58,657 nt of DNA from a virus (Duplodnaviria; Caudoviricetes), in IMG/VR virus record IMGVR_UViG_3300046796_000541, positions 1 through 58,657 of that record. One strand, 5' to 3'. This document shows positions 2,471 to 50,191 of this stretch, in pieces; the stretch's first letter is position 1; every line of letters begins with the position of its first letter. A program made the position numbers and the translations under genes. Below the pieces are notes generated by a model. It ran no database searches. It worked only from the letters and a program-made list of their open reading frames with translations, and was not told the origin of the DNA.

Positions 2471-3160
2471 CTACCCTAGCGTGAGCACGCCCTGCCCGAG
2501 TCGGCGTGCGGCGATCTCGCAATACTTCTCCTCGCGCTCGATGCCCACGGCGCGGATGCCGAGGTCCTTGCAGGCGCGGAGCGTGGTGCCCGAGCCCATG
2601 AACGGGTCGAGCACAGACGTCGGCCGCTCGGGGCACAGGCCGATGGCCCACGACATGACGGCGAGCGGCTTCTGGGTCGGGTGGTAGCGGGGCTCATGGC
2701 CCTTGCGGATCATGCCGTTCCACAAATGCCGGCGAAGTCGAACCGCGCCGGTGTAGTTCGTCCAGGCCAGTTCGGCGTCGGCGAAATCCCCGGAGTTCTC
2801 TTTGTCCCAGACCAGCCAGCACGGAGAAGGAGGCAACGCGAAGTAGTTCCCGCCGAAGATGCACTGCCACATTGATAGCGAGCGGAGGTCGGTCAGTAGT
2901 CCATCGCTTGGCGGCGCATCGTCCCAGTCCGCGGTGCCATAGTCGCGAGGGCGCGGCGTGGACCCCTGTAGCCTCGCCGCCCTCGCCTCGGTGCAGACTC
3001 TAGACTTCCCCTTCCCTCTCGCCTCCCCGATCCCATACGGCGGGTCCGTGCACAGCAGATCGAACCGGCCGAGAGTCGGCGCGATCTCCGCGCAGTCGCC
3101 GTGGTAGATCGCGATCCCGTCGGCTTCGTAGTAGGGCGTCACGGGCTCCATCATCGTCAC
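2471..3160 (-). CDS. Orphan N6-adenine/N4-cytosine DNA methyltransferase (beta class)
   Basis: IYHGDC, DPPY catalytic motif, HPTQKP, LDPFMGSGTT SAM-binding motif in beta-class order. Confidence 0.95.
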   Translation of the reverse strand: MTMMEPVTPYYEADGIAIYHGDCAEIAPTLGRFDLLCTDPPYGIGEARGKGKSRVCTEARAARLQGSTPRPRDYGTADWDDAPPSDGLLTDLRSLSMWQCIFGGNYFALPPSPCWLVWDKENSGDFADAELAWTNYTGAVRLRRHLWNGMIRKGHEPRYHPTQKPLAVMSWAIGLCPERPTSVLDPFMGSGTTLRACKDLGIRAVGIEREEKYCEIAARRLGQGVLTLG

Positions 3161-3204: not shown

Positions 3205-3573
3205 ATGTCCAACGACTACTTCAAGGAAATCGACCTCAACCCCGCCGTCGGGGGCCTCGTCAACAACCCGCTCGACCCCCGGGCGATGCACTACTTTGGG
3301 TTCCTGGCGGAGGGCCAGGATATCTCGATCGTGAACCCGATCACCCCGCAGCCCCGGATCGCGGTCTCCTGGCAGTTCGGGAATCAGCCCACCCCCGCGC
3401 CCGTCCCACCACAGCCGTCGATCGATGCGATCCTCGACTTCAACGGCACGGGCCCCGGTCTGCACTACGAGTTCCACCACGATCGGTCGCACGTGATCGT
3501 GTGGTGGGACCCGACCGTCGCGACGCCGACCGGACCGGCGGTCGTTCGGGTCCGCGCCTGGGCCACGAAGTAG
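3205..3573 (+). CDS. Hypothetical protein (possibly virion-associated)
   Basis: Clean 122-aa ORF with strong GC3 codon bias. Confidence 0.7.
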   Translation: MSNDYFKEIDLNPAVGGLVNNPLDPRAMHYFGFLAEGQDISIVNPITPQPRIAVSWQFGNQPTPAPVPPQPSIDAILDFNGTGPGLHYEFHHDRSHVIVWWDPTVATPTGPAVVRVRAWATK

Positions 3574-3600
3574 CCCGGTCCGACAGCGATCTGTATGCCG

Positions 3601-3708
3601 GCTTGCATTCCCGGCTGAACTGTGGTCGCATCGGTCAACCCACGGACCGGTACCGGCAGCCGTAGGTGAGCTTCCCCACCAGCCGCGGGGCCGCGCAACA
3701 GCGCCGCC
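3601..3708 (+). promoter_or_regulatory. Putative late promoter and structured 5' leader, copy 1
   Basis: TTGCAT-17-TCGCAT, hairpin 3638-3667, GAG-N5-CCACCAGCCG; homologous to 50192-50304. Confidence 0.7.
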
Positions 3709-6700
3709 ATGCCCGGGGAAGCCGTCCAAGCGTTCAGGTTCGCGCAGGGTGTCCAGACCAAGCAGGACCCCAAGAGCGTGGCCATGCCGGCGCTCCTCGT
3801 GCTCGAGAACGGCGTGTTCTCGCGCGCGACGTCGATCAGGAAGCGGAACGGGTGCGCTGACCTCGGCCAGCAGATCGAGGGCACCTCCGCCGACGTGACC
3901 GGCGCGATCCGCATGGCCAAGCGCGGCACCGAGCTGCTCGAGTTCACGCGCAACCGCTGCTACTCGCGCGAGAGCGGCGTCGCGCAGTGGTCCGACGCCG
4001 GGGCCGTGTTCAGCGCGGTGGGCGCGGACCGCCCGCTGCCGACCACCGGGACCGACCAGACCATGATCGACGCGGCATCGCTCGCCGGCGTCACGGTCTG
4101 CGCCTGGGAGGACTCGGCCGGCGGCGTCTGGTGGTCGGCCGTCGATACCGTGAGCCAGCGCGTCTACCGCGCCGCGACCCAGGCCGACGCGACCGGAATC
4201 TCGCCGCGTTGCGTGGCGGTCGGAGCCAACCTCCACGTGTACTGGGCGAACGCGGCGGGCGGGTCGATCAACGTCCTCGTGGTCAGCCCGCAGACCCCCG
4301 CGGCCGCGCCGGCGTCGATCCAGCTGACCCCTGACCTGGCGGTCGCTGACCCGGTCTACGACGTCGCGCCGACCACGCGCACCGACACCCCGTCGATCAT
4401 CGCGTGGGCCGAGCAGGGGACCACGAACATCAGGATCGGGTACATCGACCAGAGCGGCACCATCTCGTCGCCGCTGCTCGGTGACCCACCGTCGATCACC
4501 TTCGCTGCCGCGCGTACCGCGGCGACGCCGCTGGGGCTGGCCCACGCGTTCGTCGACGGCGCGAACGCCGACCGGATCGCGCTCGCATACGTCACCGGCG
4601 GCGGCCTGGGCACCGCCAAGGTCGAGTGGTTCGCGGCCGGGAACAGCGGTGCGAGCCCGTTGGCCACGCTCGCGAACTTCACCGCGTACGCGCCGACCGC
4701 GGCGTTCCTGCGGTGCGGCGTGACCGTGTTGCGCGACGCGACGGCGGGGACGATCACGGCGTGGACGATCTGGGAGGAGAGCGCGGCGGCTCCGACGAAC
4801 CACTATCTCCGCGTGGTCTCCGTCGAGGTCACCGCCGGCTCGAGCGGCGTCCTGGGGACGTTCAAGTCGGTCGGCCTCGTCGCCAAGCCGTTCTCGATCG
4901 GCTCCGACGTGTTCGCGACCACCGTGCACCCGACCACCTCATTCAACGTCTACGTCACCGTCCGGATCAACGGCAGCGGCACCGGCGTCTTCACCGACAA
5001 CGTGCCGGTGGGGCGCCACCTGCCCGGCTCGGCCGCCGGGCTGCCGGTCCGTACGCACGTCGCGTCGGCGTACGTGGTCGGGTCGATCGCGAGCATCGCC
5101 CTGCCGATGCGGCAGCGGTTGGTGAGCGAGAACAACGACAAGTTTCTGGAGACCGCGCCGCGGCTCATCACGATCGATTTCGACAACCCGCAGAGCCACC
5201 AAAGCGCCGAGTTCGGCAAGGGGCTGTACCTCGCCGGGGCCTGCCCGATGCACTACGACGGGCTCCAGTGGACCGAGCTCGGGTTCCACGTCGGTCCCGA
5301 GGTCATCGCTGCGGTCCCCGCCGGCGGCGGCTCGATGACCTCGAGCACAGTCTACGAGTACCGGGTCTGGTACGAGTGGACCGACGCGCAGGGCGAGGTG
5401 CATCTCGGGCCGACCTCGCCCGGGATCCTCGTGACGATGGGAGGCGGCGACACCCAGGTCACCCTGACGCTGCCGACCTGCCGGCTCACCCACAAGCTGG
5501 GCGTGCGCATCATGGTCGCGCGCTCGTTGCCCGGCTCGGACGGGAACGCCTCGCAGCTGTTCCGCGTGACATCGCTCGACACGACCGCGACGGGATCGGC
5601 CAACGGCTACGTCGCGAACTCGCTGGCGTCCGACACCGTGAATTTCCTGGACCGGATGAGCGACGTGACGCTCCAGACCTTCGACGAGCTGTACACCGAC
5701 GGCGGCATTCTCTCGAACGACCCGACGCCGCTCGGGCCCACGCTCACGCGGGGCAAGGATCGGTTGTTCGCGAGCGACCCGAGCGATCCGACCCTCGTGC
5801 GCTACTCGCAGCCGATCTCGGACGGGTTCGGCGTGCAGTGGCCGCCGGACCTCTTCCTCCGCATCGACCTCCAGGGCGGCAGCGTGCAGGGCCTCGCCGG
5901 CATCGACAACCGGATGATCATCTGGACCGAACGCCAGATCTGGACGTTCGCCGGCGACGGTCCGGACCAGACCGGGAACGCTGATGTGAGCGGGTTCTCG
6001 CGACCGCAGCTCGTCCCGAGCGGCGATATCGGCTGCACTGACCCGCAGTCGATCGTGTTCACGCCGCGCGGCTACTTGTTCATGAGCGCGCAGGGGATCT
6101 TCGAGCTCGGCGGCGACAGCAGCATCAACTACCGCGGCGCCCCCGTCGAGGCGTTCAACGGCCAGACGATCCGCCGCGCGATCCAGCTGCCGGACCGCAC
6201 CCAGATCCTGTTCCTCACCGACAGCGGATCGACGCTGCTCTACGACTACCTCTTCGACCAGTGGAGCACCTTCACGAACTACGAGGGCCTTGACTGCGCG
6301 GTCGTCGCCGGCCGGCTCTACTACCTGCGCACCGATGGGCGCATGTTCGCGGAGACCGTCGGGGTGTACTCGGACGCCGGCTCGCGGATCCGGCTGCGGC
6401 TCGAGACCGCGTGGATCAAGATGGTGGAGTACCTGCAGGGGTTCGAGAAGTTCAACCAGTTCCACCTGCTCGGCACATGGGAGTCGGCGCACCAGCTCGG
6501 TGTGCAGTACCAGACCGACTACACGCTGGGCTGGACCGACGCGGTGTGGTTCGACGCGACCGGCGTGAGCAGCGGCACCGGCTGGATCAGCGGATCGAAC
6601 GTCGTCGGCGTGGAGCCGATCAGCGGCTCGAACTACAACGACGGGCAGTACAGCATCGGGCAGTACGGCGGCACGGCGCCGGGCGAATACGCGTGGCGGC

Positions 6701-6858
6701 TCGACATGTGGGAGGTGGGGCAGGCGATTCAGTTCAGGTTCGAGGACTTCGAGGCCGCCGGATTCTTCGGCCCCTCCTTCGAGCTCACCGAGCTCGTCAT
6801 CACCGGGCAAGTGCTCGGCAACGTGCGCCGTCCGATGACGGCGGGAAGATCGGGATAA
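3709..6858 (+). CDS. Tail nozzle / tail tubular protein B-like (P22 gp10 / T7 gp12 analogue)
   Basis: 1049 aa, beta-rich; N-terminal LENGVF...IRKRNG and later GCTDPQSIV...FMSAQGI, LLYDYLFDQWSTF; directly upstream of ejection-protein genes. Confidence 0.75.
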   Translation: MPGEAVQAFRFAQGVQTKQDPKSVAMPALLVLENGVFSRATSIRKRNGCADLGQQIEGTSADVTGAIRMAKRGTELLEFTRNRCYSRESGVAQWSDAGAVFSAVGADRPLPTTGTDQTMIDAASLAGVTVCAWEDSAGGVWWSAVDTVSQRVYRAATQADATGISPRCVAVGANLHVYWANAAGGSINVLVVSPQTPAAAPASIQLTPDLAVADPVYDVAPTTRTDTPSIIAWAEQGTTNIRIGYIDQSGTISSPLLGDPPSITFAAARTAATPLGLAHAFVDGANADRIALAYVTGGGLGTAKVEWFAAGNSGASPLATLANFTAYAPTAAFLRCGVTVLRDATAGTITAWTIWEESAAAPTNHYLRVVSVEVTAGSSGVLGTFKSVGLVAKPFSIGSDVFATTVHPTTSFNVYVTVRINGSGTGVFTDNVPVGRHLPGSAAGLPVRTHVASAYVVGSIASIALPMRQRLVSENNDKFLETAPRLITIDFDNPQSHQSAEFGKGLYLAGACPMHYDGLQWTELGFHVGPEVIAAVPAGGGSMTSSTVYEYRVWYEWTDAQGEVHLGPTSPGILVTMGGGDTQVTLTLPTCRLTHKLGVRIMVARSLPGSDGNASQLFRVTSLDTTATGSANGYVANSLASDTVNFLDRMSDVTLQTFDELYTDGGILSNDPTPLGPTLTRGKDRLFASDPSDPTLVRYSQPISDGFGVQWPPDLFLRIDLQGGSVQGLAGIDNRMIIWTERQIWTFAGDGPDQTGNADVSGFSRPQLVPSGDIGCTDPQSIVFTPRGYLFMSAQGIFELGGDSSINYRGAPVEAFNGQTIRRAIQLPDRTQILFLTDSGSTLLYDYLFDQWSTFTNYEGLDCAVVAGRLYYLRTDGRMFAETVGVYSDAGSRIRLRLETAWIKMVEYLQGFEKFNQFHLLGTWESAHQLGVQYQTDYTLGWTDAVWFDATGVSSGTGWISGSNVVGVEPISGSNYNDGQYSIGQYGGTAPGEYAWRLDMWEVGQAIQFRFEDFEAAGFFGPSFELTELVITGQVLGNVRRPMTAGRSG

Positions 6859-6860
6859 CC

Positions 6861-7793
6861 ATGGTTGACTGGGGCGCAGGCGGCAAGGGCGCCGCATCCG
6901 GTGCGGCACTTGGAACGGCGATCCTTCCCGGCTGGGGGACCGCGATCGGCGGCGCCGTCGGCGGGCTATACGGCCTATTCGGCGGCGGCGGAGACGATCC
7001 CGCCCCGCCACCGCCACCGAACCCGTACGCCACCGCGATGCTTGGCAACATCGCCGGCGGCGCCCAGGGCCGCAGCGCGGCGTCGATGTACGGCTCGCAG
7101 TTCACCGTGGACCCCACGGGCCGGCAGGGCATCCTCGACACCACCGGCCGGCTCGGGCGGATCGCCGCGGGGACCCAGCAGGGCGCCGGCGAGATGGCGG
7201 TCAACGCGCAGGTCGGGCGCGCGAACGCCGCGCAGATGGCCGCCGCGCGCGCGAGCCACGGGGCGAACGCAGCCCTGGCGTTCCGCAACTCGATGCGCAA
7301 CCAGGCCGACATCGGGCTCGCCGGCGCGGGCCAAGCCGGCGCGATGCGGCTGCAGGACCAGGCTGCGGCGAATCAGCAGCTCGGTGGCCTGTTCACGAAC
7401 CTCTACGGCCAGGACGCCGGCATCGCCGCGCAGAACGCTCAGCTCTCACAGGCCGCGCAGCAAGCGAACCTGCAGGCGCAGATGCAGCAGCGTCAGATGA
7501 ACGACGCCTACCAGATCCAGGCGCTCGGGCAGATGCAAGGCTGGTCGCAGCAGCAGATTGACGCCTACCGCGCGCAGCTCCAGCAGCAGCAGATCGACCT
7601 GCAGAAGCCCAACGTGGCGGGAAACCTCCTGCAGGGCGCGGGGACATACATGCAGCTCAAGGGGATGGGGGCCTTCGGTGGCAACGCCGGCGCGAGCGGC
7701 GGCGTTCAACTTCCCAACCCCGGCGGGCTCTCGCAGATGTATCCCCACGGTGACCAGACCGGCGGTAGCGGCCCGGTCACGATGCCGAGCTGA
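6861..7793 (+). CDS. Internal virion / ejection protein (small)
   Basis: ATG 6861; glycine-zipper N-terminus GAASGAALGTAILPGWGTAIGGAVGGLYGLFG followed by A/Q-rich helices. Confidence 0.75.
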   Translation: MVDWGAGGKGAASGAALGTAILPGWGTAIGGAVGGLYGLFGGGGDDPAPPPPPNPYATAMLGNIAGGAQGRSAASMYGSQFTVDPTGRQGILDTTGRLGRIAAGTQQGAGEMAVNAQVGRANAAQMAAARASHGANAALAFRNSMRNQADIGLAGAGQAGAMRLQDQAAANQQLGGLFTNLYGQDAGIAAQNAQLSQAAQQANLQAQMQQRQMNDAYQIQALGQMQGWSQQQIDAYRAQLQQQQIDLQKPNVAGNLLQGAGTYMQLKGMGAFGGNAGASGGVQLPNPGGLSQMYPHGDQTGGSGPVTMPS

Positions 7794-7795
7794 CC

Positions 7796-10141
7796 ATGCC
7801 CCTCTACGACGGCAACATGGTCCAGATGCTCACGCCCGACGGGCGCGCGATCACGATGCCGAGCGGGCTCGCGCAGACCTTCCCCGGGCTGCAGCCCTTC
7901 CCGGCGGCGCCCCCGATGCCCGCCGGTGGCCCGCCGGATCAAGCCGGCAGCCTGCCCCCAGCCGCGCCGCAGATCGCGCCACAGGGCCCCCAGGAGGGCC
8001 CCATCACGGACCCCTCGCAGCTCCCGCCGGGGACCGGGGCCCCTTCGGCGCCACAGGGCCCTGTGACGACCCCCGCGGAGGACACCGGGGTGCCGCGCCG
8101 GCCAGCGCCGGAGCCCTCGCCCACGAAGGCCCAGCTGGTCAAGGAGGGCCCCGCGGGGACCCTCGCCGCGCAGAACGCCGCGATCGACAAGCAGCAGACC
8201 GCGATCGACCGTTCCGCGCAGGTCGAGGCCGACGCCGCCACGCAAGAGGGCCACGCGATGGCCCAGCGCGACGCGCAGACCCAGCAGATCCTGATCGAAA
8301 AGGCGAACCAGGCCAAGGCGAACGAGGCCGAGCTCAACGCGCGGATCCAGGCGCGCGACCAGCTCGCCGATCAGATCGCCAAGACGCGGATCGACCGCAG
8401 CGTGGACCATCCGATCTGGGCGCAGATCGGGCTCGTGCTGTCGATGATCGGCACCGCCATGACCCGGCGGCCAGGCGAGGCGTACAGCGACCCGGCGTTC
8501 AACACGCTGCAGCAGCTGCTTGACAAGAAGGTCGCCGGGCAGATGCAGGACCTCGATCAGAAGCGACTGGGGCTCGCCCAGATGAACATCGGCGTGACCG
8601 AGCAGCGACAGCACAACGTCGACCGGCTCACCGAGATCGACGCGCGCAAGGACGCCGCGATCCAGCAGGCCCAGCAGGCGGTGCAGACGATCGCGATGCA
8701 GATGAAGTCCCCGGCGGCGCTCGCGAACGCGCAGCAGCTCAATGCGAAGCTGGACGAGGAGCGGGCGAATCTCCGGGGCCAGGCCGGGCAGCGGTACCAA
8801 GACCAGATGAACGCCGAGGCGACGCGTGCGCAGAGCCTGCAGATGCACCGCGAGTCGCTCGGGATGCAGTACCGCATCCACAGCGAGACGCTGCAGGCGA
8901 CCGAGCGCGAGAAGATGGCCGAGGTCGCGCAGCGTGCGCTCGCCGCTGGCGACAAGGCCACCTCCGAGAAAGCCAAGGCGGTGCAGGAGCGGGCCGTCGG
9001 CGACCCGCGGACCGGCAACGTGCTCCTCGGCCCGGCCGGACAGGCGAAGATGGACCAGGCCGACAAGATCGAGGCGCAGGCGCGCCAGCAGCAGGACCCC
9101 GATGCCGCACAGAAGATGCGCGACTACGCCGGCGCGCTCCGACAGAGCGCCATGCTGAACGACGCCGCGCTCGCACCGACCGCCGAGGCTCAGAAGGAGC
9201 TGACCAAGCAGGTGCGTTCCGCGCAGGACATCACAGACCAGATCGGCGACGTGATCGACAAGCTCCAGGCGGGCCCAGGCGTGCTGAACCGCGAGGCATG
9301 GTCAACGATCACGACCGATCTCGGCATCATCGCCGGCAAGTATCAACAGGCGATGGGCGAGCGCGTCTCGACGAAGGCGTTCGAGCAGACGATGCAGCAC
9401 ATCATCAACTTCGATCCCACCAGCCTGTTCAACCGGGCGGCGAGCAAAGACAAGGCGATCGCGTCACTCCAAACGCTCAAGAATGTGGTGGCCAGCGACG
9501 TCGATACCTCCCTGAAGGCCAACCGCATGCAGACCGCATGGCATCCGCAGACCAAGACCGAGCGGGGGGCCGCGCTCAACATCGACGAGAAGACAGCCGC
9601 GGAGACTGCCGACGATCGGAGCCTGGGTTACCTCAATCTGGGGCGCTACACCGGCGGGCAGGAGCAGGCCAAGGAGGAAGCCTTCAACGAGGCGCAGGCG
9701 CGCCCCGGTGCCGAGGCCGGGCTCTCGCCGAACGCCGCGACCCACATCAAGGCGCTCGCCGCGCGCGCCACCACCGCGGGCGATGCCGAGCACGACCGGA
9801 TCGTGCAGTCGCTCGCGGGTCCGATCAGCGACGGGCTCCGAGAGGGGTCGCGCAACTCGGTGTCGACCGGCATGCTCGAGGTGCTGCGGAACTCCGCGCC
9901 CGCCATCTATGACGACGTCGTGAAGGCGCTGCCTGCCAGCGATCAGAAGGAGATCCGCGCGCGCGATGCGCTGGTCCGCAAGGCGACCCCGGTGCCGAAT
10001 ACGCCGAGCGGGTTCGACCCGGACGCCGCGGCTGCGGCGCAGGCGGAGCGCGATCGGGCTGCTGCCGGCGCATCGGCGCGGTCCGAGCGCGTGCGGGCGG
10101 AGCAGCGCGACAAGTTCGGCGATCTGGGGACCTCGAGGTAG
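7796..10141 (+). CDS. Internal virion / ejection protein (coiled-coil)
   Basis: 781 aa, A/Q-rich helical, one hydrophobic segment; position between other ejection proteins. Confidence 0.7.
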   Translation: MPLYDGNMVQMLTPDGRAITMPSGLAQTFPGLQPFPAAPPMPAGGPPDQAGSLPPAAPQIAPQGPQEGPITDPSQLPPGTGAPSAPQGPVTTPAEDTGVPRRPAPEPSPTKAQLVKEGPAGTLAAQNAAIDKQQTAIDRSAQVEADAATQEGHAMAQRDAQTQQILIEKANQAKANEAELNARIQARDQLADQIAKTRIDRSVDHPIWAQIGLVLSMIGTAMTRRPGEAYSDPAFNTLQQLLDKKVAGQMQDLDQKRLGLAQMNIGVTEQRQHNVDRLTEIDARKDAAIQQAQQAVQTIAMQMKSPAALANAQQLNAKLDEERANLRGQAGQRYQDQMNAEATRAQSLQMHRESLGMQYRIHSETLQATEREKMAEVAQRALAAGDKATSEKAKAVQERAVGDPRTGNVLLGPAGQAKMDQADKIEAQARQQQDPDAAQKMRDYAGALRQSAMLNDAALAPTAEAQKELTKQVRSAQDITDQIGDVIDKLQAGPGVLNREAWSTITTDLGIIAGKYQQAMGERVSTKAFEQTMQHIINFDPTSLFNRAASKDKAIASLQTLKNVVASDVDTSLKANRMQTAWHPQTKTERGAALNIDEKTAAETADDRSLGYLNLGRYTGGQEQAKEEAFNEAQARPGAEAGLSPNAATHIKALAARATTAGDAEHDRIVQSLAGPISDGLREGSRNSVSTGMLEVLRNSAPAIYDDVVKALPASDQKEIRARDALVRKATPVPNTPSGFDPDAAAAAQAERDRAAAGASARSERVRAEQRDKFGDLGTSR

Positions 10142-13100
10142 ATGCCGGCGTTCCGCGGCCCAGATGGGAAGGTGGTCTACGTCCCCGAGGACGAGGCCGA
10201 TCGGTACCGCGCGGGCGGCGACTACCAGGAGGTCGGCCGGGCGGAGGCCGGCGCCGCGCAGAACCGGATCGCGCCCACCGACAACGGCGTCCTGGGGTCG
10301 ATCGGCGCGACGGTCAGCGCTGGGCTGTCGGGGGCGACGCTGGGCGCCTCGGATTGGCTGCTCAAGGGGGTCCTGAACAAGGGGCAGTTCGAGCAGCTCG
10401 CGCAGGACCGCGCGGACAACCCGATCCTGGCTGGGACCGCGCAGGCCGCCGGCATGGTGATCCCTGCGCTGGTCAGCGGCGGCACGGCGACGCCGGCGGG
10501 GGCGCTCGGGCGGCTGGCCGGCGAGGGCATCGAGGCAGGCAGGGCGACCGGCGGCGCGCTGGGCGTCGCACAGCAGCTCGGCGCCGCCGGGGCCGAGGGG
10601 GCGATCGCAAACGCCGGGATCTACATGTCGGACGTGGCGCTGGGCGATCGGAACCTCACCGCCGAGGGCATCAACGGGGCGCTCGGGACTGGGCTGCTGT
10701 TCGGCGCGGCAGGAATCCCGGTCGCGCACGGCATCGAGGCCGGTACGATCGCCGCGCGGCGCATGTTCGCGCGGTACGCCGAGGGTGGCACGCAGGCGGC
10801 GGAAGCTGCGACCGCGGCGTGGACCGAGCAGGCGCAGAAGCATCTGGAGGGCTTCGACCAGGCCGCCGAGCTCGCGAAGGCGAAGCTGGCGGAGACCCAG
10901 ACCGCGCGCGAGGCGGCGAACCTGCAGCGGCTCCGCGCCGGCTCCGAGATGGCGGACGCGCGCGCGTTCACCCCGCCGAGCGAGTTCCCGGGCGGCCCGG
11001 CCGCGCCGGCGTCGCCGGCAGGCGCCGCCACGGAGGCCGCTGGGCCCGCCGCCGCCGCGGCCCCTGAACCACCCGAGGTCGCCATGGCGCGTGCGCTGCG
11101 CGACCGCGCCAAGGGGCTGGGCGGGGAGCCGATCACGCCCGGCGAGCTGCCGCCCGGAGCACCCGGGTTCCGGAGGGACTTCGTCATCCCCGGCGAGCGC
11201 CCGCCGGCGGCGCCCAACGCGCTCGAGCAGCTGGCGCAACAGCCCGGCGTGACCACGCAGGGGCCCGCGACGCTCGCGCGCACGCGCGGGCTGGTTGGGC
11301 CGCCGGTGACCGCGGACGAGGCCGAGCTCGGCGCCCGGCTCGGCGAGTACCAGGCGGCCCGGCGCTCGTTCGACGAGCTGCACGCGCAGGTCGACCCCGA
11401 CCTCGACGCGATCCTCCGCGGCGTCCAGCCGGGCGACGTCCAGCGGATGCCGGTGCCGATCGGCGAGTTCGGCGCCCCCGGCGCGGGCGGGTTCAAGAGC
11501 CAAGGCGAGCTCGCGCGGCTCGCCTCCGGGACCGGGCGCGAAGAGGGCGCGCAGGCGGCGTCGCTCGCGTCGGCGGACGCGACTGGTACTGGCGGCCCGC
11601 GCGCGCTCCGATCCCAGGGCACGCCCCCGGCGCGGTCCCTGGGCGAGGTCGCGTCCGAACAGGCTCCGGTGCCGATCGAGCAGCCTTCGACCGCGGTGGG
11701 GAAGCGACCGGCGGGCGCCATGGAGACCCCCACCGGATTCGATATCCACGGCTCAACGGAGGCCGGTCCGGTATTCGACAAGAACCCGACCGTGCGGAGC
11801 GGCGTCCCCGGGTTCGCCGACTTGGAGCGCGAGACCTACCGCAAGAATGCCTACGTCTTGCGGCCGAGCGAGCTCGATGGTCCCAAGCTGCGCGGCATCA
11901 CGAGCGGCGAGGACATGGTCGCCGACGCGCGCACGGCCAAGGTCCGCGAGGCATGGGGCAAGGGCGAGAGCACCCCGGCGCTGGAGATCGACGTCGACCC
12001 CAAGGGCAACTACTTCGTCGCCGACGGGAATCACCGCCTGCTCGCAGCCGCCGCGGACGGCGATCGCCCGGTTCTGGCCAGGTTTCGACCCGTGGAGGCC
12101 GAGGTCGGGAACATGGACCGGATCGGCGACGACCTCCGGCGCGCGCTCGGGCGTGGTGAGGAATCGACATCGTCGATAGAGACCGCTCATCCGGGGATCG
12201 CGAAGGAGTATTCACCGGACACGGGAACGCGCCTCAATTCCGAGGGAGCGCTTGGATTCAATGGAGATGCCCCGTTGGTAGAATGGGCGCATAAATCTGG
12301 CTTCGCCCCGGAGGGAGCCGGTCCCGTCCATACCACGCCGACTGGGTTCTCGTACAAACCGACCATTACGGATCCGGATAGTGCCCTTAGCAAATACATC
12401 CAGCATCCGAGTGAATTCAATATCGATGCTCGCGCGGGGAGATTGACCGACGACATCAAGCGGCTTGATGCGGAGATCGGTGCGCGTCGCATGCCCGAAA
12501 CGATTACGACGTTCCGCGGTGTGCGATCGGGACCACTGACCGCCGCATCGGAGGGAGAAGTTGTTAATGAGGCAGGGTTCATGTCCTCGAGCCCGACTGA
12601 GCGCCGAGCCAAGAACTTCGCGACAGGGGCCGCGAAGCCTGGGGAAACGACACCGACAATCGTTGAATTCGATATCCCCAAGGGCACCCAAGCCCACTGG
12701 GTGAGCGATTTCGAGGGCGAGATCCTCCTGGGACGCGGTCACAAATTGGAGATCGTCAGTGTAGGATTCAAGGAAATCCGCGGCAAGAACGTCCGCATGG
12801 TCAGGGCGCGGCTCATAGAGCCGTCATCTACCATCCCGGCCACTGACACGCTCACCGGCCAGCTCCGCGGCATGGAGTCGAAGCTCGGAGCCGGCGAGGA
12901 CCTCGTGGCGATGGGCGAGCCCGCACGTGATGCGTATCGCGCCGCGAAGGCCGAGCGGACTTCCGAGGCGGCGGCGCACTTCCGGGGAAAGGCGATCGCG
13001 GCCCGCGAGGCGCGCGCCGGCGCGGTGGCCGCGGGCGAGACCCCCAACCCGTTCCACGAGCCGGCCGCGGGCGGCGCCGGGTCCGAGATGGACCAGTTCT

Positions 13101-14992
13101 TCCGCAACCTGAACACCCCCAAGACCCGCGACGCCTACGTCGCCGCGAACATCGGCCGGGCGATGCGCGAGGAGGGATCGCACGCCGCCGCGCTGGCCAA
13201 GGTCGAACGCGAGTGGGCGGACCACGCGGGCACCGCTACGGCCGCCGCGCCGCCGGCCACATGGCGCGAGTTCCAGGCCTCCAAGATGGCCGAGTACATG
13301 AAGTCGGAAGGCGGGCACGCCGGCGCAATGAAGCGGCTCGGCCAGGAGTGGCGGGCGCGCGGCGAGCACCCGCTGGACGTCAAGCGGCTCGAGATGGCCC
13401 ACGATGCCGCGCTCGAGCGTGCTGCCACCGCGGCGGATCCCGCCGAGCGCGCGGCGGCCGCGCAGGAGGCGCAGGTGATCGAGAAGCAGATCACCCAGGT
13501 TGGCGCTCGCCCCGGGGCCGTCGAGGACATCGCGGCGCTCGCGCCGGCAGTGACCCGGGTGGAGAAGGCCGCCGCGGCGCTCACCGAGGCGCTGGGCGAC
13601 GCCGCGCCGGCCGCCGCGAAGGAGCACGCCGCCGCGTTCCGGGCCGCGGAGGACGAGGCGAGCCGCAAGACGGTCGCGCGCATCGGACAGGCCGCGGACG
13701 ATGCCGCCGCGGGCCGCGCTGCGGCGCAGAGCCGGGATCCGCTCGCTCCGCCGGCGCGCCCGGCCGAGGACCTCCTGCTCGGCCCCAGCCAGAAGCAGCA
13801 GCGGATCGCCGCCGCCCAGAAGTCCCAGCGCGAGGCCGGCGCCGCCTATGCCAAGGCGCGGGTGGCCGAGGCCGAGGCGCAGATCGGCGCCAAGCAGGCC
13901 GCCGGCGCCGCCGCGGACGCGCGCGCCAAGCTCGGCCCGCCGCCGGAGACCGTCGGTGCCGCGCCGCGCGGGCGCGGGATCGGCGGACGAGTGATCGCCG
14001 GAGCGCACGCCGTGGGCTACGCCGCCGAGCTCGGCTCCGACCTCGGGATCCCCGGAGTCCCGCGCCCGCACGACATCCCGGTGATCGGCCCCCTGCTCAG
14101 CGCTTACCTGAAGTACCGGGCGCTCCGGGCCGCGGCCGGGCGGTTCATGGGGCGCGTTCCGGCCACCGCGGAGACCCAGGCGGCGGCGCTCGCCGCGCGC
14201 ACCCGCGACGGCATTGCCCGCGCCGTCGACCGCTCGCTGGGGCTCGTCGAGAGCAACGTGAACACGGTCCGGGCGGCGCTGACCGTCGGTACCCTGAAGG
14301 CCACCGATGCGCTCTCCAAGCGCCTGGTGGACGATGGGGCGCCCGACGCGCCGGCCAAGGCGTCGGTGTCGGAGCAGGCGGCGGTGAGGATGCGCGAGGT
14401 CGCCGCGGTGGCCGCCAACCCGGCGCTGATCCACGACGCGATCCGCGCGCAGGGCCGGGCGCTCACCGACCCGGACCTGATCGACGCGCTGTCCACCCAC
14501 CTGGTGACGATGTTCCAGCGCCTGAGCGAGGTCGCCCCGAAGGGCCCGCCGCCGAACCCGTTCACGGGTAAGACGTGGACGCCGTCGCCCGCCGAGGCGA
14601 TCCGCTTCGGGCAGCAGGTGGCGATCGCGCGGGACCCCCAGGTGGCGTTCCAGATGCTCGAGGCGGGCACGCTCACGCCGACCGGCGCCGACACGCTGCG
14701 GGCCTGCTACCAGCTGCTGTTCCGCGATGGCCAACAGCGGGTCATCCAGCGCGCCACCGATCTCAAGAACCCGCCCGACTACCAGCAGCTCATCCGGCTC
14801 GGCCGGCTGTTCGACCTGCCGCTCCACCCAAGCCAGGATCCGGCGAATGCCGCGGTACTCGCCGAGGCCCACACGCAGGCCGCGAAGCCGGCGCCGGCGG
14901 CCGGCAGCGGCGGGCCCCCGACCCCCTCGACCGCCGGTCCCACGACCCTCAGCAACCTGTACCAGCCATCGGGCGAGCGCGCCCAGAGGTGA
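10142..14992 (+). CDS. Large ejection protein with inserted ParB/Srx-like and ADP-ribosyltransferase domains
   Basis: 1616 aa, Ala/Gly-rich; YFVADGNHRLLAA (~12010-12050); FRG...GFMSSS...EGEILL R-S-E ART motifs (~12510-12730). Confidence 0.8.
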   Translation: MPAFRGPDGKVVYVPEDEADRYRAGGDYQEVGRAEAGAAQNRIAPTDNGVLGSIGATVSAGLSGATLGASDWLLKGVLNKGQFEQLAQDRADNPILAGTAQAAGMVIPALVSGGTATPAGALGRLAGEGIEAGRATGGALGVAQQLGAAGAEGAIANAGIYMSDVALGDRNLTAEGINGALGTGLLFGAAGIPVAHGIEAGTIAARRMFARYAEGGTQAAEAATAAWTEQAQKHLEGFDQAAELAKAKLAETQTAREAANLQRLRAGSEMADARAFTPPSEFPGGPAAPASPAGAATEAAGPAAAAAPEPPEVAMARALRDRAKGLGGEPITPGELPPGAPGFRRDFVIPGERPPAAPNALEQLAQQPGVTTQGPATLARTRGLVGPPVTADEAELGARLGEYQAARRSFDELHAQVDPDLDAILRGVQPGDVQRMPVPIGEFGAPGAGGFKSQGELARLASGTGREEGAQAASLASADATGTGGPRALRSQGTPPARSLGEVASEQAPVPIEQPSTAVGKRPAGAMETPTGFDIHGSTEAGPVFDKNPTVRSGVPGFADLERETYRKNAYVLRPSELDGPKLRGITSGEDMVADARTAKVREAWGKGESTPALEIDVDPKGNYFVADGNHRLLAAAADGDRPVLARFRPVEAEVGNMDRIGDDLRRALGRGEESTSSIETAHPGIAKEYSPDTGTRLNSEGALGFNGDAPLVEWAHKSGFAPEGAGPVHTTPTGFSYKPTITDPDSALSKYIQHPSEFNIDARAGRLTDDIKRLDAEIGARRMPETITTFRGVRSGPLTAASEGEVVNEAGFMSSSPTERRAKNFATGAAKPGETTPTIVEFDIPKGTQAHWVSDFEGEILLGRGHKLEIVSVGFKEIRGKNVRMVRARLIEPSSTIPATDTLTGQLRGMESKLGAGEDLVAMGEPARDAYRAAKAERTSEAAAHFRGKAIAAREARAGAVAAGETPNPFHEPAAGGAGSEMDQFFRNLNTPKTRDAYVAANIGRAMREEGSHAAALAKVEREWADHAGTATAAAPPATWREFQASKMAEYMKSEGGHAGAMKRLGQEWRARGEHPLDVKRLEMAHDAALERAATAADPAERAAAAQEAQVIEKQITQVGARPGAVEDIAALAPAVTRVEKAAAALTEALGDAAPAAAKEHAAAFRAAEDEASRKTVARIGQAADDAAAGRAAAQSRDPLAPPARPAEDLLLGPSQKQQRIAAAQKSQREAGAAYAKARVAEAEAQIGAKQAAGAAADARAKLGPPPETVGAAPRGRGIGGRVIAGAHAVGYAAELGSDLGIPGVPRPHDIPVIGPLLSAYLKYRALRAAAGRFMGRVPATAETQAAALAARTRDGIARAVDRSLGLVESNVNTVRAALTVGTLKATDALSKRLVDDGAPDAPAKASVSEQAAVRMREVAAVAANPALIHDAIRAQGRALTDPDLIDALSTHLVTMFQRLSEVAPKGPPPNPFTGKTWTPSPAEAIRFGQQVAIARDPQVAFQMLEAGTLTPTGADTLRACYQLLFRDGQQRVIQRATDLKNPPDYQQLIRLGRLFDLPLHPSQDPANAAVLAEAHTQAAKPAPAAGSGGPPTPSTAGPTTLSNLYQPSGERAQR

Positions 14993-14995
14993 CCC

Positions 14996-15493
14996 ATGCA
15001 TGGATCTCGACGCTACCTCGTTCCGATCGATACCGCCGACGGCACCTCGCCCGCGGAGGCCGGAGGCCACGGCATCTACACGCTCACCGCGAGCCACACC
15101 TACGTCTACCTGGACCCGACGCTCGACACGCCGTTCACGAGCTTCGACCTGACCGGGTATGACGCCGGGCTTGTGATCACCTCGGCGACGATCCAGGACA
15201 CGAACCACCCAGGATCGGTGACCGCCGGCGGGCCGAACGGTGGCGACGTCCCAGACACGAGCGTGACCGTCGGCGAGTGGAAGAACGAGCGGCCGACCAA
15301 CGGCTACGTGGCGGCGGATGGCGCCGGCTGGAGCGTCGGCAGCGGCGCGACCGCGTGCGTCGTCGCAGCCAGCGGCGCCGGCGTCGGCGGCGCGCTCTGG
15401 CACGTCGCGGAGACCGGCGCGGCGCGGACCCGGCTCAACGTCGTGGTCGGCGGCACCGGCGGCAAGGTCCGCGTATCGGCGGCGGGGAAGTAG
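14996..15493 (+). CDS. Hypothetical beta-rich virion protein
   Basis: SD-like GAGGTGA, tight operon coupling, G/T/V-rich. Confidence 0.65.
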   Translation: MHGSRRYLVPIDTADGTSPAEAGGHGIYTLTASHTYVYLDPTLDTPFTSFDLTGYDAGLVITSATIQDTNHPGSVTAGGPNGGDVPDTSVTVGEWKNERPTNGYVAADGAGWSVGSGATACVVAASGAGVGGALWHVAETGAARTRLNVVVGGTGGKVRVSAAGK

Positions 15494-17053
15494 ATGGGGA
15501 TCGGGCTCCGCATCGGGGCGCGCATGACCTCGACCATCGGCGTGGGCATCGGCGGCGTCGGCAGCTCTCCGGCGACGCTGGTCGCGGGATTCGGCGACAG
15601 CAACAACGAGGGCTTCGTCGCCTCGTTCGGATCGAGCGGCGCTAACGGGCTGGACCCGGCGCTCAACGCCAACACGCCGTACATCACCCGGTACAACTGG
15701 CACGGCGCGGCCGGCGTCGCCGACCCGCCGGTGTTCTTGCCGGCGTTCCCCGGGCCGGGCGATCTGGACATCGGGGGCGTCAGCGCCCGGTTCTCGACCG
15801 ACGGCAAGATGGGTAACGACATGGGCATCGCTCGCGCGCTCGAGACGGCGATCGCCGTGCCGGCCGTGAGCTCTGAAGGCCTGGTCGCGGCGACCCTCGC
15901 TGTGCACTGGTTGCCGTCTACCCCATACCCGTCCAGCGGGCCGAACCTATTCAACTTGTGGGTCACGCGGCAGCACACGCTCGAGGGCATTCTGGGACGT
16001 CGACTCGGCGGCGCGTACGTGGATCTGCTGCCAAACGACACGCTGTCCGCGCCTCAGTCCGCAGCGGCGGGCACCAACCTCACTGCGCTGTTTGCCGCGA
16101 TCCGCGCGGTGTGGCCAGGATTGCCCATCTGCCTTCCGAAGCTCTCCATCAGCAACCTCAACGCGGCCAACCGCGACACAATCCGCGCGCTGGAGGTCAC
16201 GTTCGCGGCGAGCGATCCGCTGTGCGCGTTCGTCGACGTCGACGACCTGCCGCTGATCGATGGCCTCCACTTCCCGCCGAACGGGTACCAGACGCGCGGC
16301 GAGCGCATCGGGTTCGCGTTGCTCCCGCTGATGGGCTACGCGCCAAGGGTGGCAGTCACAACGCCGGCGATGCTCGGATGGGGACCGGGCGCCTGGGCAT
16401 CGACGTCGTTGTCATTCGCGAACCTCAATACCATCAACTCCTACGGAGACGAACGTAACGGCGACCTGCAGATCATGGTGATTGAGACCGGTGTCCTGAG
16501 CGGGTCCGCCATCGGCACGCCGGCCGGCTGGACCGCGGTCGGGACGCTGCAGACCACGGGGAGCGCCGGGATCTTCTGCAACGTGCAGCTGTTCTCGAGG
16601 GCGGTCACGACGGCGATCCTCAACGCTAACGGTGGACACATGCCGGCGACGAGCTACACCGCAGCCGACGACCGCAACGTCGCGAAAATCATCACGGTGC
16701 GAGGGCCGAGCGCGAATCCGACGATCGATGTGGCCACCCCGTTTCTGGCGAACGCTGTCGGCGCCTCGATGAGCGTTCCCGGGATTACCACCGGGTTTGC
16801 CAACGAGCTCGTGATCGTCATCGCGGGCGGCTGGGCCGGCTCCTCGTCGAGGACCCAGGCGATCACGAATGGGACCCTCACGGGATTCGTCCAGCAGCAG
16901 GATGGCGCGTACCCGATGCCGACCACGGACGCCTTCGTCCTGTCGTTCGCGTCGGGCGCCAAGGCCGCCGCCGGCGCCACGGGCACGACCACGGTTACGG
17001 TGACGGGCGGGACGACCATTGGATGGGCCTACACGATCGGAATCAAGCCATGA
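15494..17053 (+). CDS. SGNH-family (sialate/carbohydrate O-acetylesterase-like) domain plus C-terminal beta domain; probable tail spike
   Basis: GFGDSNNEG block I and DGLHF DxxH motif; C-terminal T/G-rich domain. Confidence 0.7.
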   Translation: MGIGLRIGARMTSTIGVGIGGVGSSPATLVAGFGDSNNEGFVASFGSSGANGLDPALNANTPYITRYNWHGAAGVADPPVFLPAFPGPGDLDIGGVSARFSTDGKMGNDMGIARALETAIAVPAVSSEGLVAATLAVHWLPSTPYPSSGPNLFNLWVTRQHTLEGILGRRLGGAYVDLLPNDTLSAPQSAAAGTNLTALFAAIRAVWPGLPICLPKLSISNLNAANRDTIRALEVTFAASDPLCAFVDVDDLPLIDGLHFPPNGYQTRGERIGFALLPLMGYAPRVAVTTPAMLGWGPGAWASTSLSFANLNTINSYGDERNGDLQIMVIETGVLSGSAIGTPAGWTAVGTLQTTGSAGIFCNVQLFSRAVTTAILNANGGHMPATSYTAADDRNVAKIITVRGPSANPTIDVATPFLANAVGASMSVPGITTGFANELVIVIAGGWAGSSSRTQAITNGTLTGFVQQQDGAYPMPTTDAFVLSFASGAKAAAGATGTTTVTVTGGTTIGWAYTIGIKP

Positions 17054-17478
17054 TCGACGACGATGACCAGGACGACCGGACCCCGCGCGAGCAGCGCCCG
17101 CCGACGAACAGCGAGCGGATCGCGTACTTCGTCGACCACCCGCCCGGGACCCCGGTCGCGGACGTCATCGACCAGCGCATCGAGAAGCTCGACGCACGCC
17201 TCGACGCGCAGCAGCTCGACATCGCATCGCTCCTCGCGAGCCGTCGCGCCTGGCGCTGGATCGCGGGGATCACCCTGCCCGTGCTGCTCGTGGCGATGAC
17301 CACGGTGCAGCTCTGGATGATCGACCGGGTCTCGACGAGCGAGCGCGCGGCCGGTCGGTCCGAGGCCACCACCGAATCGATCCAGTTCCGGCTCAACCTG
17401 CTCGAGGGTTACGTCCACGAGCTGCTGCGGCATGCCGGGCTCGACGCGCGCGGCACCGTCGCGGTAGGTGGGCCATGA
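17050..17478 (+). CDS. Single-TM membrane protein, holin-like
   Basis: ATGA overlap with upstream stop; coiled coil then WIAGITLPVLLVAMTTVQLW; start of lysis cluster. Confidence 0.5.
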   Translation: MIDDDDQDDRTPREQRPPTNSERIAYFVDHPPGTPVADVIDQRIEKLDARLDAQQLDIASLLASRRAWRWIAGITLPVLLVAMTTVQLWMIDRVSTSERAAGRSEATTESIQFRLNLLEGYVHELLRHAGLDARGTVAVGGP

Positions 17479-17693
17479 GGATCGCAGTCGCGCTGCTCCT
17501 CCTGCTCGCGGCATGCCCGAGGACGCCTACAAGGGCGCTAGCGCAAGAGGACCCGAGCTTCCAGTGCCAGAGCAGCTCCGAGTGCAACCACAACAGCAAC
17601 GGGTGCACGTACTGTTACCAGGGTGCCTGCAGCTGCTTCCTGCCCGCCGAACCCAAGACGCCACCTGACGCCGGAACCGAACCCACGAAGTGA
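17475..17693 (+). CDS. Small Cys-rich lipoprotein
   Basis: MRIAVALLLLLAA-C lipobox; six further Cys (CQSSSEC...CTYC...CSC). Confidence 0.75.
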   Translation: MRIAVALLLLLAACPRTPTRALAQEDPSFQCQSSSECNHNSNGCTYCYQGACSCFLPAEPKTPPDAGTEPTK

Positions 17694-17705
17694 AAGGACC
17701 GAATC

Positions 17706-18482
17706 ATGCTCTCGTCTCGAATCCGTGACACCCTGCCCCAGGCCGCCGTTGCTCTCGCCGTCGTCGCAAGCGTCGTCGTGCTGCTCACCCGGATCGCCCA
17801 CGCCGCGCAAGCCGTCGCGCCGATCGCGACCGCTGCGCCCTTCGACTGGAACTTCTGGATCGGCGTGCTCCTCGCCGCCGCTACCGCCGGTTCATACGTG
17901 CTCCATGCGCTCGCCGCGCGGCGCCACAGCGCGACGTTGGAGAAGTGGGCCGCGGCGATCGATGAGGGCCGCGTCGTCGTCAAGGGCGTCGCTCCAGCGC
18001 CGCTCGCGGTGGCCAAGGCGCCCGGCACCGGGACCGCCGCGATGCTGGTTGTCGTGCTGCTCGGCATCACCGGAGCTGGTCTCGCGCTGGCCCCCGGCTG
18101 CACGCCCGCCGAGCGCGCCACCGCCGCGACCACGGCCAAGGTCTCGCTGGTCAACTGCACTGCTCAGACGGTCGGCGCCACACCGGCGCTCGACCTCGCC
18201 ACGCTGGTCGCGGTCGTCAACCTGACGGCGGCGGAGCGCGCGAAGTGCATGACCGCGACCGGGATCAGCTGGCCATGCGTCGAGACGGACGCCATCGCCA
18301 AGGGCGTGACGCTGGGCGGATGCATGTTCGTCGACATGGTCGCGGCGGCGGCCAAGGCGATCCAGCCGTCCGCTTCCGGCCTCGCCGCTAACCCTGCGCC
18401 ACCACCGGGCCGCGTCGAGCTCGAGGACTACCGCGGCAAGGTCGGCGGCGCGACGTGGCACACCTCGGCCGGCGACCAGTGA
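17706..18482 (+). CDS. Membrane protein of lysis cassette (holin/spanin-like) with internal lipobox
   Basis: Two N-terminal hydrophobic segments, then MLVVVLLGITGAGLALAPG-C and a Cys-containing domain. Confidence 0.55.
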   Translation: MLSSRIRDTLPQAAVALAVVASVVVLLTRIAHAAQAVAPIATAAPFDWNFWIGVLLAAATAGSYVLHALAARRHSATLEKWAAAIDEGRVVVKGVAPAPLAVAKAPGTGTAAMLVVVLLGITGAGLALAPGCTPAERATAATTAKVSLVNCTAQTVGATPALDLATLVAVVNLTAAERAKCMTATGISWPCVETDAIAKGVTLGGCMFVDMVAAAAKAIQPSASGLAANPAPPPGRVELEDYRGKVGGATWHTSAGDQ

Positions 18483-19045
18483 TGGCGTCGGCCGGACCGC
18501 GCCCGCTCTACACCGCCGATGCGGCGGTCGCCCGCGCGCTCGCCGCGGTCGGGCATGGCGTCTACCAGCTTGGCACCGGCGACATCGATTCGACCGGCGA
18601 GGCGCCGCGCGACTGCTTCGGGTTCGCGTTCTGCGAGTGCTACGGCGTGCCGCGCCACCGGCCCGGCTTCAACCACGGAGCCTGGGCCACGGTATCGGAC
18701 GACCTGAACTGCAACAGCGCGATCGAGGACGCGGACCACGCCGGCGATCTGTTCGAGCGCGTGGCCACGCCTGCGCCAGGGTGCCTGATCCTCTACCCGA
18801 CGATTCACCTGCCGGGACACGAGCAGCCCTGGATCGGCCACGTCAAGATCGTGGTCCGCGTCTCGCGGTGCCTCGAGTGGGACGTCGAGCACCCGGACTG
18901 GACGCTCCTCGACACCGTCGAGTGCTGCGGCCCGCCGGGTCGACACCCCGGGATTATCCGCGGGACCGGCGCCGGCATGACCGACCACGACGCGCGCTGG
19001 CCCAAGCCGGCGCACCGGACGGCGATGCTTCGGGTCAAAGCCTGA
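18482..19045 (+). CDS. Putative endolysin, NlpC/P60-CHAP-like cysteine peptidase
   Basis: TGATG overlap; AVARA...YQLG...DCFGF and WIGHVKIV catalytic Cys/His pattern. Confidence 0.7.
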   Translation: MASAGPRPLYTADAAVARALAAVGHGVYQLGTGDIDSTGEAPRDCFGFAFCECYGVPRHRPGFNHGAWATVSDDLNCNSAIEDADHAGDLFERVATPAPGCLILYPTIHLPGHEQPWIGHVKIVVRVSRCLEWDVEHPDWTLLDTVECCGPPGRHPGIIRGTGAGMTDHDARWPKPAHRTAMLRVKA

Positions 19046-49426: not shown

Positions 49427-49468
49427 TCTCGCTTGACCGTCGCGGCGCTCGTCCGGCAGGGTGAACGG

Positions 49469-50175: not shown

Positions 50176-50191
50176 GCCGCGTTGTAACGCC

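Follow-up and report, generated by a model that had tools for sequence, protein, structure and literature searches.

A predicted structured RNA leader, present in two copies behind promoter-like blocks, precedes the head and tail operons of an uncultured soil phage

The window considered here is the whole of virus record IMGVR_UViG_3300046796_000541 (58,657 bp, 69.7% G+C), a complete record from an uncultured soil phage, in which two related leader sequences stand on the plus strand in front of the two blocks of virion genes. Copy 1 (3592-3711) precedes the gene of a 1049-aa virion protein and copy 2 (50183-50307) that of the portal. Our own gene calls place on the plus strand a head block, in which the portal (50305-52320, phrog_156) is followed by a capsid-like protein (53787-55067), and a tail block (3709-19045), of which the 1049-aa protein (phrog_3287) is the first product. 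An exact direct terminal repeat of 127 bp (1-127 and 58531-58657) closes the circle, so that the head operon crosses the record ends and continues to position 884. Given this repeat, the operon sizes of about 9 kb (head) and 15 kb (tail) stated in a preliminary description of the leaders fit the gene map. Between the head and tail modules, after 884, lies a short mixed-strand block which includes an N6/N4 DNA methylase (2471-3160, minus strand), and the rest of the window consists of a minus-strand block and a long plus-strand early region.

Each copy combines a promoter-like block (TGTAW-N6-TTGCA, N14, GTGn and a hexamer) with a leader of 71-76 nt predicted to fold into three hairpins, P1, P2 and P3, and an alignment of both copies (177 columns) shows 76% identity. 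In copy 1 the block (3592-3631) is made of TGTAT-N6-TTGCA (3592-3607), a 14-nt spacer, GTGG (3622-3625) and the hexamer TCGCAT (3626-3631); in copy 2 (50183-50222) the corresponding parts are TGTAA-N6-TTGCA (50183-50198), a 14-nt spacer, GTGG (50213-50216) and CTTGCT (50217-50222). The shared string GCTTGCA-N13-TGTGG-N5-T of the preliminary description is indeed present at 3601-3631 and 50192-50222. P1, which is assigned from folds and covariation, spans 3638-3667 and 50231-50261. Its outer stem was recovered as described, being ACCCACGG/CCGTAGGT in copy 1 (3638-3645/3660-3667, one C.A mismatch) and GATCAGTG/CGCTGATC in copy 2 (50231-50238/50254-50261, one U.G pair), and so was the enclosed core A-CCGG-(TA or GCA)-CCGG-CAG. 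This core provides an internal loop (A3646 against CAG 3657-3659; A50239 and CAG 50251-50253) and an inner CCGG/CCGG stem (3647-3650/3653-3656; 50240-50243/50247-50250). A GAG linker and P2 follow. In copy 1 (3668-3692) strand X (CCCC, 3674-3677) pairs with strand Y (GGGG, 3687-3690) around the loop ACCAGCCGC (3678-3686), a helix found by RNAalifold with two compensated variants, while in copy 2 (50262-50284) X is GGCC (50268-50271), Y is GGCU (50281-50284) and the loop is ACCAGCCGA. The 10-mer of the P2 loop occurs in the window only in the two copies. P3 and the start codon complete the leader, with GCGC 3693-3696/GCGC 3701-3704 before ATG 3709-3711 in copy 1 (3693-3711), and UCCGC 50284-50288/GCGGA 50294-50298 before ATG 50305-50307 in copy 2 (50284-50307). 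P3 of copy 1 ends 4 nt before the AUG, or at -1 if it is extended by the possible pairing of GGC 3689-3691 with GCC 3706-3708.

The remaining sequence elements reported earlier, GAG-N5-CCACCAGCCG, the hairpins GCGC-AACA-GCGC and TCCGC-GACAA-GCGGA and the final CCATG, were all found; the P2 helix, the alternative pairings around the AUG and a third, leaderless copy of the promoter are additions to that description. The ATGs at 3709 and 50305 are the first start codons of their respective open frames, and the proteins of relatives align from residue 1 or 2 of both first-gene products. In the window, CCACCAGCCG occurs exactly twice (0.22 expected; 2 of 100 shuffles reach two), as does ACCGG-N2-5-CCGGCAG (0.20 expected; 1 of 100 shuffles). 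The looser pattern GCTTGCA-N13-TGTGG with up to two mismatches is not enriched (5 matches, 3.69 expected).

Relatives were sought by protein-guided searches of viral and metagenome contigs, and few were found. By alignment, four leaders are plainly homologous to the window pair: L002 and L003 precede portals 92-93% identical to that of the window, and L016 and L010 precede tail-module proteins 87% and 83% identical to its counterpart, respectively, with L002 and L016 lying on the same contig. A covariance model built from these four and the two window copies (the six close leaders) gave three further matches from two further relatives, a portal leader (L029, 37.5 bits) and two tail leaders (L032 and L033, 29.2 and 27.6 bits). 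It produced no other convincing match in related loci (314 kb), unrelated viral loci (756 kb) or five whole related records. The leader-bearing family comprises five records, three of them with two leaders and two with one. The CCGG core, which the preliminary description took as conserved, is so only in the closest relatives; the L029 and L032 leaders lack it. GTGCTCGGATCC is common to the two leaders of the L032 genome, just as ACCGG..CCGGCAG is to the two window copies.

Beyond this family the cassette is met in reduced form. The portal leaders L004/L005 and L034, compared by eye, keep the promoter block and the 3' half and have no P1, and all that remains in the more distant L009 (portal) and L012 (tail gene) is a hairpin next to CATG. 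In record G003, whose capsid is 86% identical, the tail gene has no leader and a G-run lies 4 nt before its GTG start. In L010, the AUG of the leader opens a 28-codon open reading frame (ORF; MPREA..., 2922-3010), the stop of which overlaps a second start, ATGCCGCCCCGTGA, of the tail-module gene; this second start has its own G-run, and it is a stretch of 73 nt, either inserted or duplicated in part from the gene start, that makes the leader's AUG an upstream ORF. Searches of other collections gave no relative: blastn with 3300-4300 and 50170-50330 and tblastn with the portal found no match among the isolated phages of INPHARED, and a search of bacterial genome contigs for prophages or hosts, using the capsid protein and a portal alignment, was equally empty. 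The exact pattern of the whole core has no match in viral contigs, and the short pattern CCAGCCGNGGNNCCGCG has at least 120 unspecific ones; among 80 of these loci, one covariance-model match (21.3 bits, E 0.016) was dismissed since on inspection it has no leader feature. A metagenome scan with the capsid returned 10 loci, none of them giving an additional leader.

Ten leaders, the window copies (W1 and W2) included, were tabulated for anatomy. Counted from the predicted start as far as the AUG, they are 65-78 nt long. In all eight leaders that have P1, its first nucleotide is 6-9 nt after the putative -10 hexamer, which agrees with the earlier statement that the first hairpin begins close to the point at which transcription from the promoter-like site is expected to start. 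Its outer stem has 6-8 bp and its asymmetric internal loop sets A opposite CAG. In the six close leaders the inner CCGG/CCGG stem (CCGA/UCGG in L016) is capped by an apical loop which varies in both length (2-5 nt) and sequence. P2 is a helix of 4-5 bp (X:Y) after the GAG linker, with the conserved ACCAGCCG loop, which counts 9-10 nt when closed and has the consensus yMAGyCG; its pairs change with the lineage (CCCC/GGGG, GGCC/GGCU, GUCC/GGAC and CCC/GGG, and by eye CCGC/GCGG and CCUC/GAGG). P3 is a small hairpin of 4-5 bp which ends 3-10 nt before the AUG in 10/10 leaders.

On the six close leaders, RNAalifold returned P1 and P2, with 18 pairs of which 9 show double changes. For a 16-pair structure, of which 9 pairs are kept by double changes, 95.8% of the cells are paired, against 77.7 +/- 3.2% in shuffles that ignore the relatedness of the rows (0/500 reach the observed value); the covariation score is 0.542 against 0.200, and partners slid by 1-3 columns pair in at most 43.2%. 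When the three covariance-model matches are added, 93.9% are paired against 77.7% (0/500); this alignment has nine rows and was made to fit the model. Between the paralogues, most positions of the P1 outer stem have changed and the pairing persists, and the inner core, the GAG linker and the P2 loop are identical. The RNAalifold result and the shuffle counts bear out the earlier claim of a conserved, covarying hairpin leader and, judged from sequence comparison, the leader is a folded structure.

The organisation of the relatives suggests how the second copy came about. In the window, L035 and L028, the head genes are separated from the tail leader by minus-strand ORFs, and in the distant relatives L014 and L018 the tail gene directly follows its neighbour, with no intergenic region; the second leader copy probably arose when foreign genes, some of them on the opposite strand, split the head and tail modules. 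The same facts would suit a neutral duplication remnant, kept only as a promoter for the tail block after gene insertion and with functionless folds. We hold this to be very improbable, as decay would neither keep pairing through double changes nor leave identical blocks beside saturated divergence. Contigs of three other soil or rhizosphere sequencing runs (X2, X4 and X5) point the same way, although with small numbers: they are identical to copy 2 over 50144-50320 and differ at five places in 50321-50394, within the portal gene (50321, 50329, 50358, 50361 and 50394). Over 49900-50450, the X2-X5 contigs hold no new variant inside the leader and added nothing to the covariation.

The promoter-like block has the layout CTTG(C/A)N-N14-(G/A)TGn-hexamer in 10/10 tabulated leaders, with hexamers that include TCGCAT, TCGTAT, TCGGAT and CTTGCT. 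A scan for consensus sigma-70 promoters found nothing at these blocks. An imperfect dyad, TGTAW-N6-TTGCA, overlaps the -35 position at 3592-3607, 50183-50198 and 49950-49965, with the spacing of CRP/FNR-type sites; it is also found in L002, L003, L016, L010, L032 and L004 and is absent in L029 and L034. This dyad could well be a protein site on DNA. To extend the idea to the hairpins, so that all inverted repeats would be transcription-factor operators or cruciform signals and the RNA fold incidental, seems to us far-fetched: the stem sequences differ between the copies with the pairing kept, and the inner half-sites are 2-5 nt apart, a variation tolerated by a hairpin loop but not by a dimer site on duplex DNA. 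The choice of strand does not contribute to the argument, since the plus-strand G.U pairs of W2 and L003 are offset by C.A in W1 and L016 (G.U on the other strand).

The third copy of the promoter-like block (49950-49998, plus strand) has no leader. It consists of GGTAA-N6-TTGCA, N14, GTGC and TCGGAT, the last position being 49989, and the GTG of a 59-codon ORF is found at 49996, 7 nt after the hexamer. This distance fits the same predicted start point as in the leaders with P1, and a transcript from this copy may be leaderless. The match of the looser pattern at 49959-49983 shares the flank GTAACG-NN-GCTTGCAATTC with copy 2. Immediately upstream, the product of a 173-aa ORF (49433-49954) matches sigma-70 region 4 over residues 130-170 only (region 4.2), and a Cys/His-rich stretch precedes this part. 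The 173-aa ORF, the third promoter copy and the 59-codon ORF together form a cassette (49433-50175), with orf103 on one side and the portal leader on the other. The cassette has the repeat GTAACG-NN-GCTTGCAATTC at its flanks and is missing in the relatives, and from this arrangement we read it as an insertion. In L002/L035 and L003, the orf103 homologue stands directly before the portal leader. The sigma-like protein was considered as the cognate sigma factor of the leader family and rejected, because tblastn found no homologue of it in the related loci examined and it is missing beside the relatives' leaders. As far as the sequences go, promoter and leader are separable modules, because the third promoter has no leader and the L004 and L034 portal leaders have P2/P3 and no P1.

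A search of the whole window against Rfam at the gathering score gave no match, in line with the earlier view that the leader belongs to no described family, and the two leader regions searched at E up to 10 gave chance-level hits only (12-19 bits against thresholds of 37-63). The leader is probably a genuine regulatory RNA outside the described families: a structured cis-acting element with neither a database family nor a related isolated phage, for which the literature was covered with regard to analogues. Two simple accounts of P1 were rejected. A conserved upstream ORF inside it is contradicted by W1 and L002, which by eye lack a start codon where W2 has GTG and seven further codons. RNase III sites need about two helical turns, and P1 offers only about 12 bp.

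The preliminary description proposed an RNA for antitermination or translational control. A processive antiterminator of the kind of HK022 put would bind, as nascent RNA, the very polymerase that made it, with no dedicated protein, and would enable it to withstand pausing and termination over the 9-kb and 15-kb operons; put itself needs no protein factors and works by way of the beta-prime zinc-binding domain. What speaks for antitermination is the general anatomy: leaders of 65-78 nt that start at the predicted +1, two per genome, with stem-loops that contain an internal loop, to which can be added that the unchanging nucleotides of the internal loop and the linker would be apt for contact with an invariable protein surface like that of polymerase. 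The operons themselves offer little for such an RNA to overcome. A consensus scan, which requires a U-tract and is blind to Rho-dependent sites, finds no convincing plus-strand terminator-like site in 50305-58657 and 1-884, and a single weak one (6053-6071) in 3709-19045. Fewer terminator-like sites are counted than shuffles give on average (2 against 6.5 and 4 against 5.3), and no hairpin followed by a U-tract is seen in the gaps between the genes of either operon. In addition, the 3' half of the leader is in register with the AUG and not with the promoter, a register that an RNA acting on polymerase does not need; the tail gene of G003 has no leader and two portal leaders have no P1; and no Rfam model matches, although the presence of a put model in Rfam was not confirmed. 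That the leader modifies polymerase in the manner of put, independently of protein, here in a high-GC soil phage unrelated to the lambdoid phages, on late operons and fused to the start of the first gene, we regard as unlikely, though the fit of the anatomy makes it a serious rival. If it did, one folded RNA would license long-range transcription and meter the first cistron, and to our knowledge a put-like element would for the first time be seen beyond the HK022 group.

The region of the start codon points in another direction. As was noted previously, neither gene has a Shine-Dalgarno (SD) sequence at the canonical distance, which is not so special in this genome: a 4-mer SD core is found at -17..-4 in 7/21 late plus-strand gene calls. 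A G-rich, SD-like tract (GGGG, GAGG or GUGG) is found instead at -19 to -26 from the AUG, 0-2 nt before the P3 hairpin in 10/10 tabulated leaders. When P3 is discounted, the distance between tract and AUG is 5-8 nt in 8/10 leaders, and 4 and 11 nt in the other two. This tract is strand Y, the 3' strand of P2. In the minimum-energy folds, Y pairs with the nucleotides just before the AUG (Y:Z) and CC(N)AUGGC finds its partner in the conserved GCCG(N)GG. Of the AUG, at least the G is engaged in pairing in 12/12 leader 3' halves, U and G in 8/12, and opening of -5..+3 costs 6.2-16.3 kcal/mol. In copy 2, GGCCA (50268-50272) pairs with UGGCC (50306-50310) in the minimum-energy fold, and GAGG (50279-50282) has an alternative partner in CCUC (50300-50303). 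Where L034 has GAA and not GCC as second codon, its upstream partner has changed too (UCCA against GCCG). According to these models, the leader can adopt at least two forms, one with P2, a small P3 and the AUG open, and the other a long closed hairpin. A direct contact of the P2 loop with the ribosome was also considered, in which CCAGCCG would be the complement of the 16S rRNA just 5' of the anti-SD. It was rejected: the rRNA stretch is helical, a loop located before the G tract has the wrong order for a continuous duplex, and relatives read CAAGCCG or CAAGUCG.

The explanation we favour, to which we give a probability of roughly 0.45, is that the leader acts post-transcriptionally, by protecting the 5' end and by gating or tuning translation initiation on the first cistron. 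Each copy would join a non-canonical promoter to a leader RNA of about 70-78 nt whose effect is post-transcriptional, the two together forming a portable cassette for late expression. P1, at the predicted 5' end, would have a stabilising role; 5'-terminal stem-loops reportedly stabilise mRNA (Emory, Bouvet and Belasco 1992). P2 and P3 would enclose the site at which translation of the first cistron begins, this being the portal gene or that of the first tail-module protein. Tract Y, 19-26 nt upstream of the AUG, would reach an effective distance of 5-8 nt only with P3 folded, in the way that a hairpin between SD and AUG gives functional spacing in the account of T4 genes 38 and 25 in PMC3014915. 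Y could pair either upstream with X, which gives P2, or downstream with nucleotides before and within the AUG, which gives the long closed hairpin. In this manner the leader would set or gate ribosome starts on the first gene, perhaps only in a co-transcriptional window or only with a bound factor, and downstream genes would use their own start sites. Since the portal, and probably the first tail-module protein, is needed in far fewer copies than the capsid, the result might be a throttled first cistron on a strong late transcript. Post-transcriptional control is favoured by the two registers of the leader: that of P1 is fixed to the promoter and that of P2/P3 to the AUG, even in relatives without P1 or with only the hairpin abutting CATG, and an RNA directed at polymerase needs neither. 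Of the interpretation offered earlier, then, the structured and covarying leader holds; between antitermination and translational control, the AUG-anchored 3' part favours the latter.

Several observations weigh against post-transcriptional control as set out here. The SD-like tract is paired in both predicted states, with X in the consensus and with Z in the minimum-energy folds, so that the split-SD and the occlusion readings pull opposite ways, and the absence of an SD is common (14/21 late gene calls). The nine leaders come from five records and represent two paralogue clades, with few independent compensatory events. Portal-type leaders fold better than shuffles (z -3.31, -4.81 and -3.27; 0/200 shuffles each), but tail-type leaders do not (z +0.28, -0.34 and -1.52; 120, 67 and 19 of 200). 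At position 2 the putative -10 hexamers do not have the A that a housekeeping-sigma -10 element would be expected to carry, and the predicted start point could therefore be wrong. Sequencing runs were searched, and no RNA run containing the sequence was found. Finally, the conserved blocks which do not covary (A-CCGG..CCGG-CAG, GAG and the ACCAGCCG loop) suggest a sequence-specific partner, which a pure stability or occlusion model does not need.

Such a partner is central to the possibility that the leader serves as operator RNA for an RNA-binding protein of the phage or the host, which would recognise the P1 internal loop with the CCGG stem, the P2 loop or both, and would repress or activate translation of the first cistron under autogenous or temporal control. 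T4 RegA or gp32 and the coat-protein operators of RNA phages are examples of such control. The blocks identical in the paralogues adjoin a P1 outer stem that is fully diverged and still pairs, and lineage-specific details are common to both copies of a genome (ACCGG..CCGGCAG in the window, GTGCTCGGATCC in that of L032), a pattern suggestive of gene conversion or of co-evolution with a partner particular to each genome. The only DNA- or RNA-binding candidate nearby, however, is the sigma-region-4-like ORF, absent beside the relatives' leaders, and the lack of the CCGG core in the L029 and L032 leaders indicates that it is not essential to the family. We consider an operator of this type improbable, though not to the degree of the DNA-level and neutral accounts.

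Some other genes of the window deserve mention. A 212-aa ORF (20779-21417, minus strand) matches the anti-sigma-type zinc finger zf-HC2 (Pfam, E 5e-8) and, weakly, an RsrA-like NCBIfam model, and it may encode a phage anti-sigma factor. A 964-aa ORF (44432-47326, plus strand) has a Terminase_6N match at the cut-off, together with sub-threshold Hint and intein-splicing matches at residues 571-892, and is probably a large terminase interrupted by an intein. The 1616-aa product of a tail-module gene (10142-14992, plus strand) contains an ADP-ribosyltransferase exoenzyme domain (PF03496, 32.9 bits, residues 764-890), and a circularly permuted YpsA SLOG-family protein (PF12694, E 5e-15) is encoded in the early region (40186-41001, plus strand). 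A tRNA search of the window found none.

Late operons of tailed phages must yield very unequal amounts of protein from one long mRNA, and a duplicated promoter-leader cassette with modules that appear separable is a concrete object for testing RNA-based control of morphogenesis genes. Should the leader prove to be put-like, it would widen a class known from very few phages. Its practical weight is moderate, because the family is small (five records) and its function predicted only.

Among the closest known systems is HK022 put. The passages of PMC9378689 that treat it describe cis-acting RNAs of about 70 nt with bulged stem-loops, present as two paralogous copies per genome (putL and putR), each behind a promoter, putL from +3, and with differences that preserve pairing; apart from the exact start, predicted here at +1, the leader resembles them in these features. 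Unlike the present leader, put belongs to early operons, is followed by known terminators and bears no relation to a start codon. The leader described here ends at the AUG of the first late gene, which it is predicted to bury, has no predicted terminators downstream, matches no Rfam model, and belongs to an unrelated phage group and host. The boxB hairpin of lambda has a conserved apical loop which is recognised by N; the P1 apical loops of the six close leaders are not conserved, which sets the leader apart from a lambda-type nut site.

The split ribosome-binding sites of T4 genes 38 and 25 offer a parallel for the 3' part. As reported in the T4 section of PMC3014915, the SD is 22 and 27 nt from the AUG and a hairpin shortens this to 5 and 11 nt; here too the genes are late or structural phage genes, with a tract 19-26 nt away that an intervening hairpin would bring to 5-8 nt in 8/10 leaders. 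The T4 SD, in contrast, is canonical and free, whereas the tract here is GGGG, GAGG or GUGG and predicted to be paired, and the T4 elements are intercistronic or without a 5' hairpin module. For this module, the analogues are the 5' stabiliser stem-loops of ompA and papA, which resemble P1 in being hairpins at the (here predicted) 5' end of a long mRNA in which structure matters over sequence, the P1 outer stem covarying freely. The leader of T7 gene 10 is a further 5'-terminal stabiliser stem-loop. In the closest relatives, P1 differs from these in its invariant internal loop and inner stem, which a simple end-cap would not need.

The SAS and ESAS elements of Cluster K mycobacteriophages are likewise phage-specific conserved sequences immediately upstream of start codons. 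The relevant passages of PMC3203893 describe a 13-bp GGGATAGGAGCCC-like motif that contains AGGAG and lies 3-7 bp from the starts of many non-structural genes, in some cases with an upstream inverted repeat at a variable spacer, and with a role in translation initiation proposed and unproven. The present leaders, in contrast, number two per genome, stand on structural operons with a promoter attached, have no AGGAG core at -17..-4 and bear no sequence resemblance to these elements. The last comparison concerns the timing of folding. In the maturation gene of MS2, the start region is closed at equilibrium and open as long as an upstream alternative pairing persists on the nascent RNA, and in a similar, here hypothetical, manner the competition between X:Y and Y:Z could allow a transiently open start in the phage leader.

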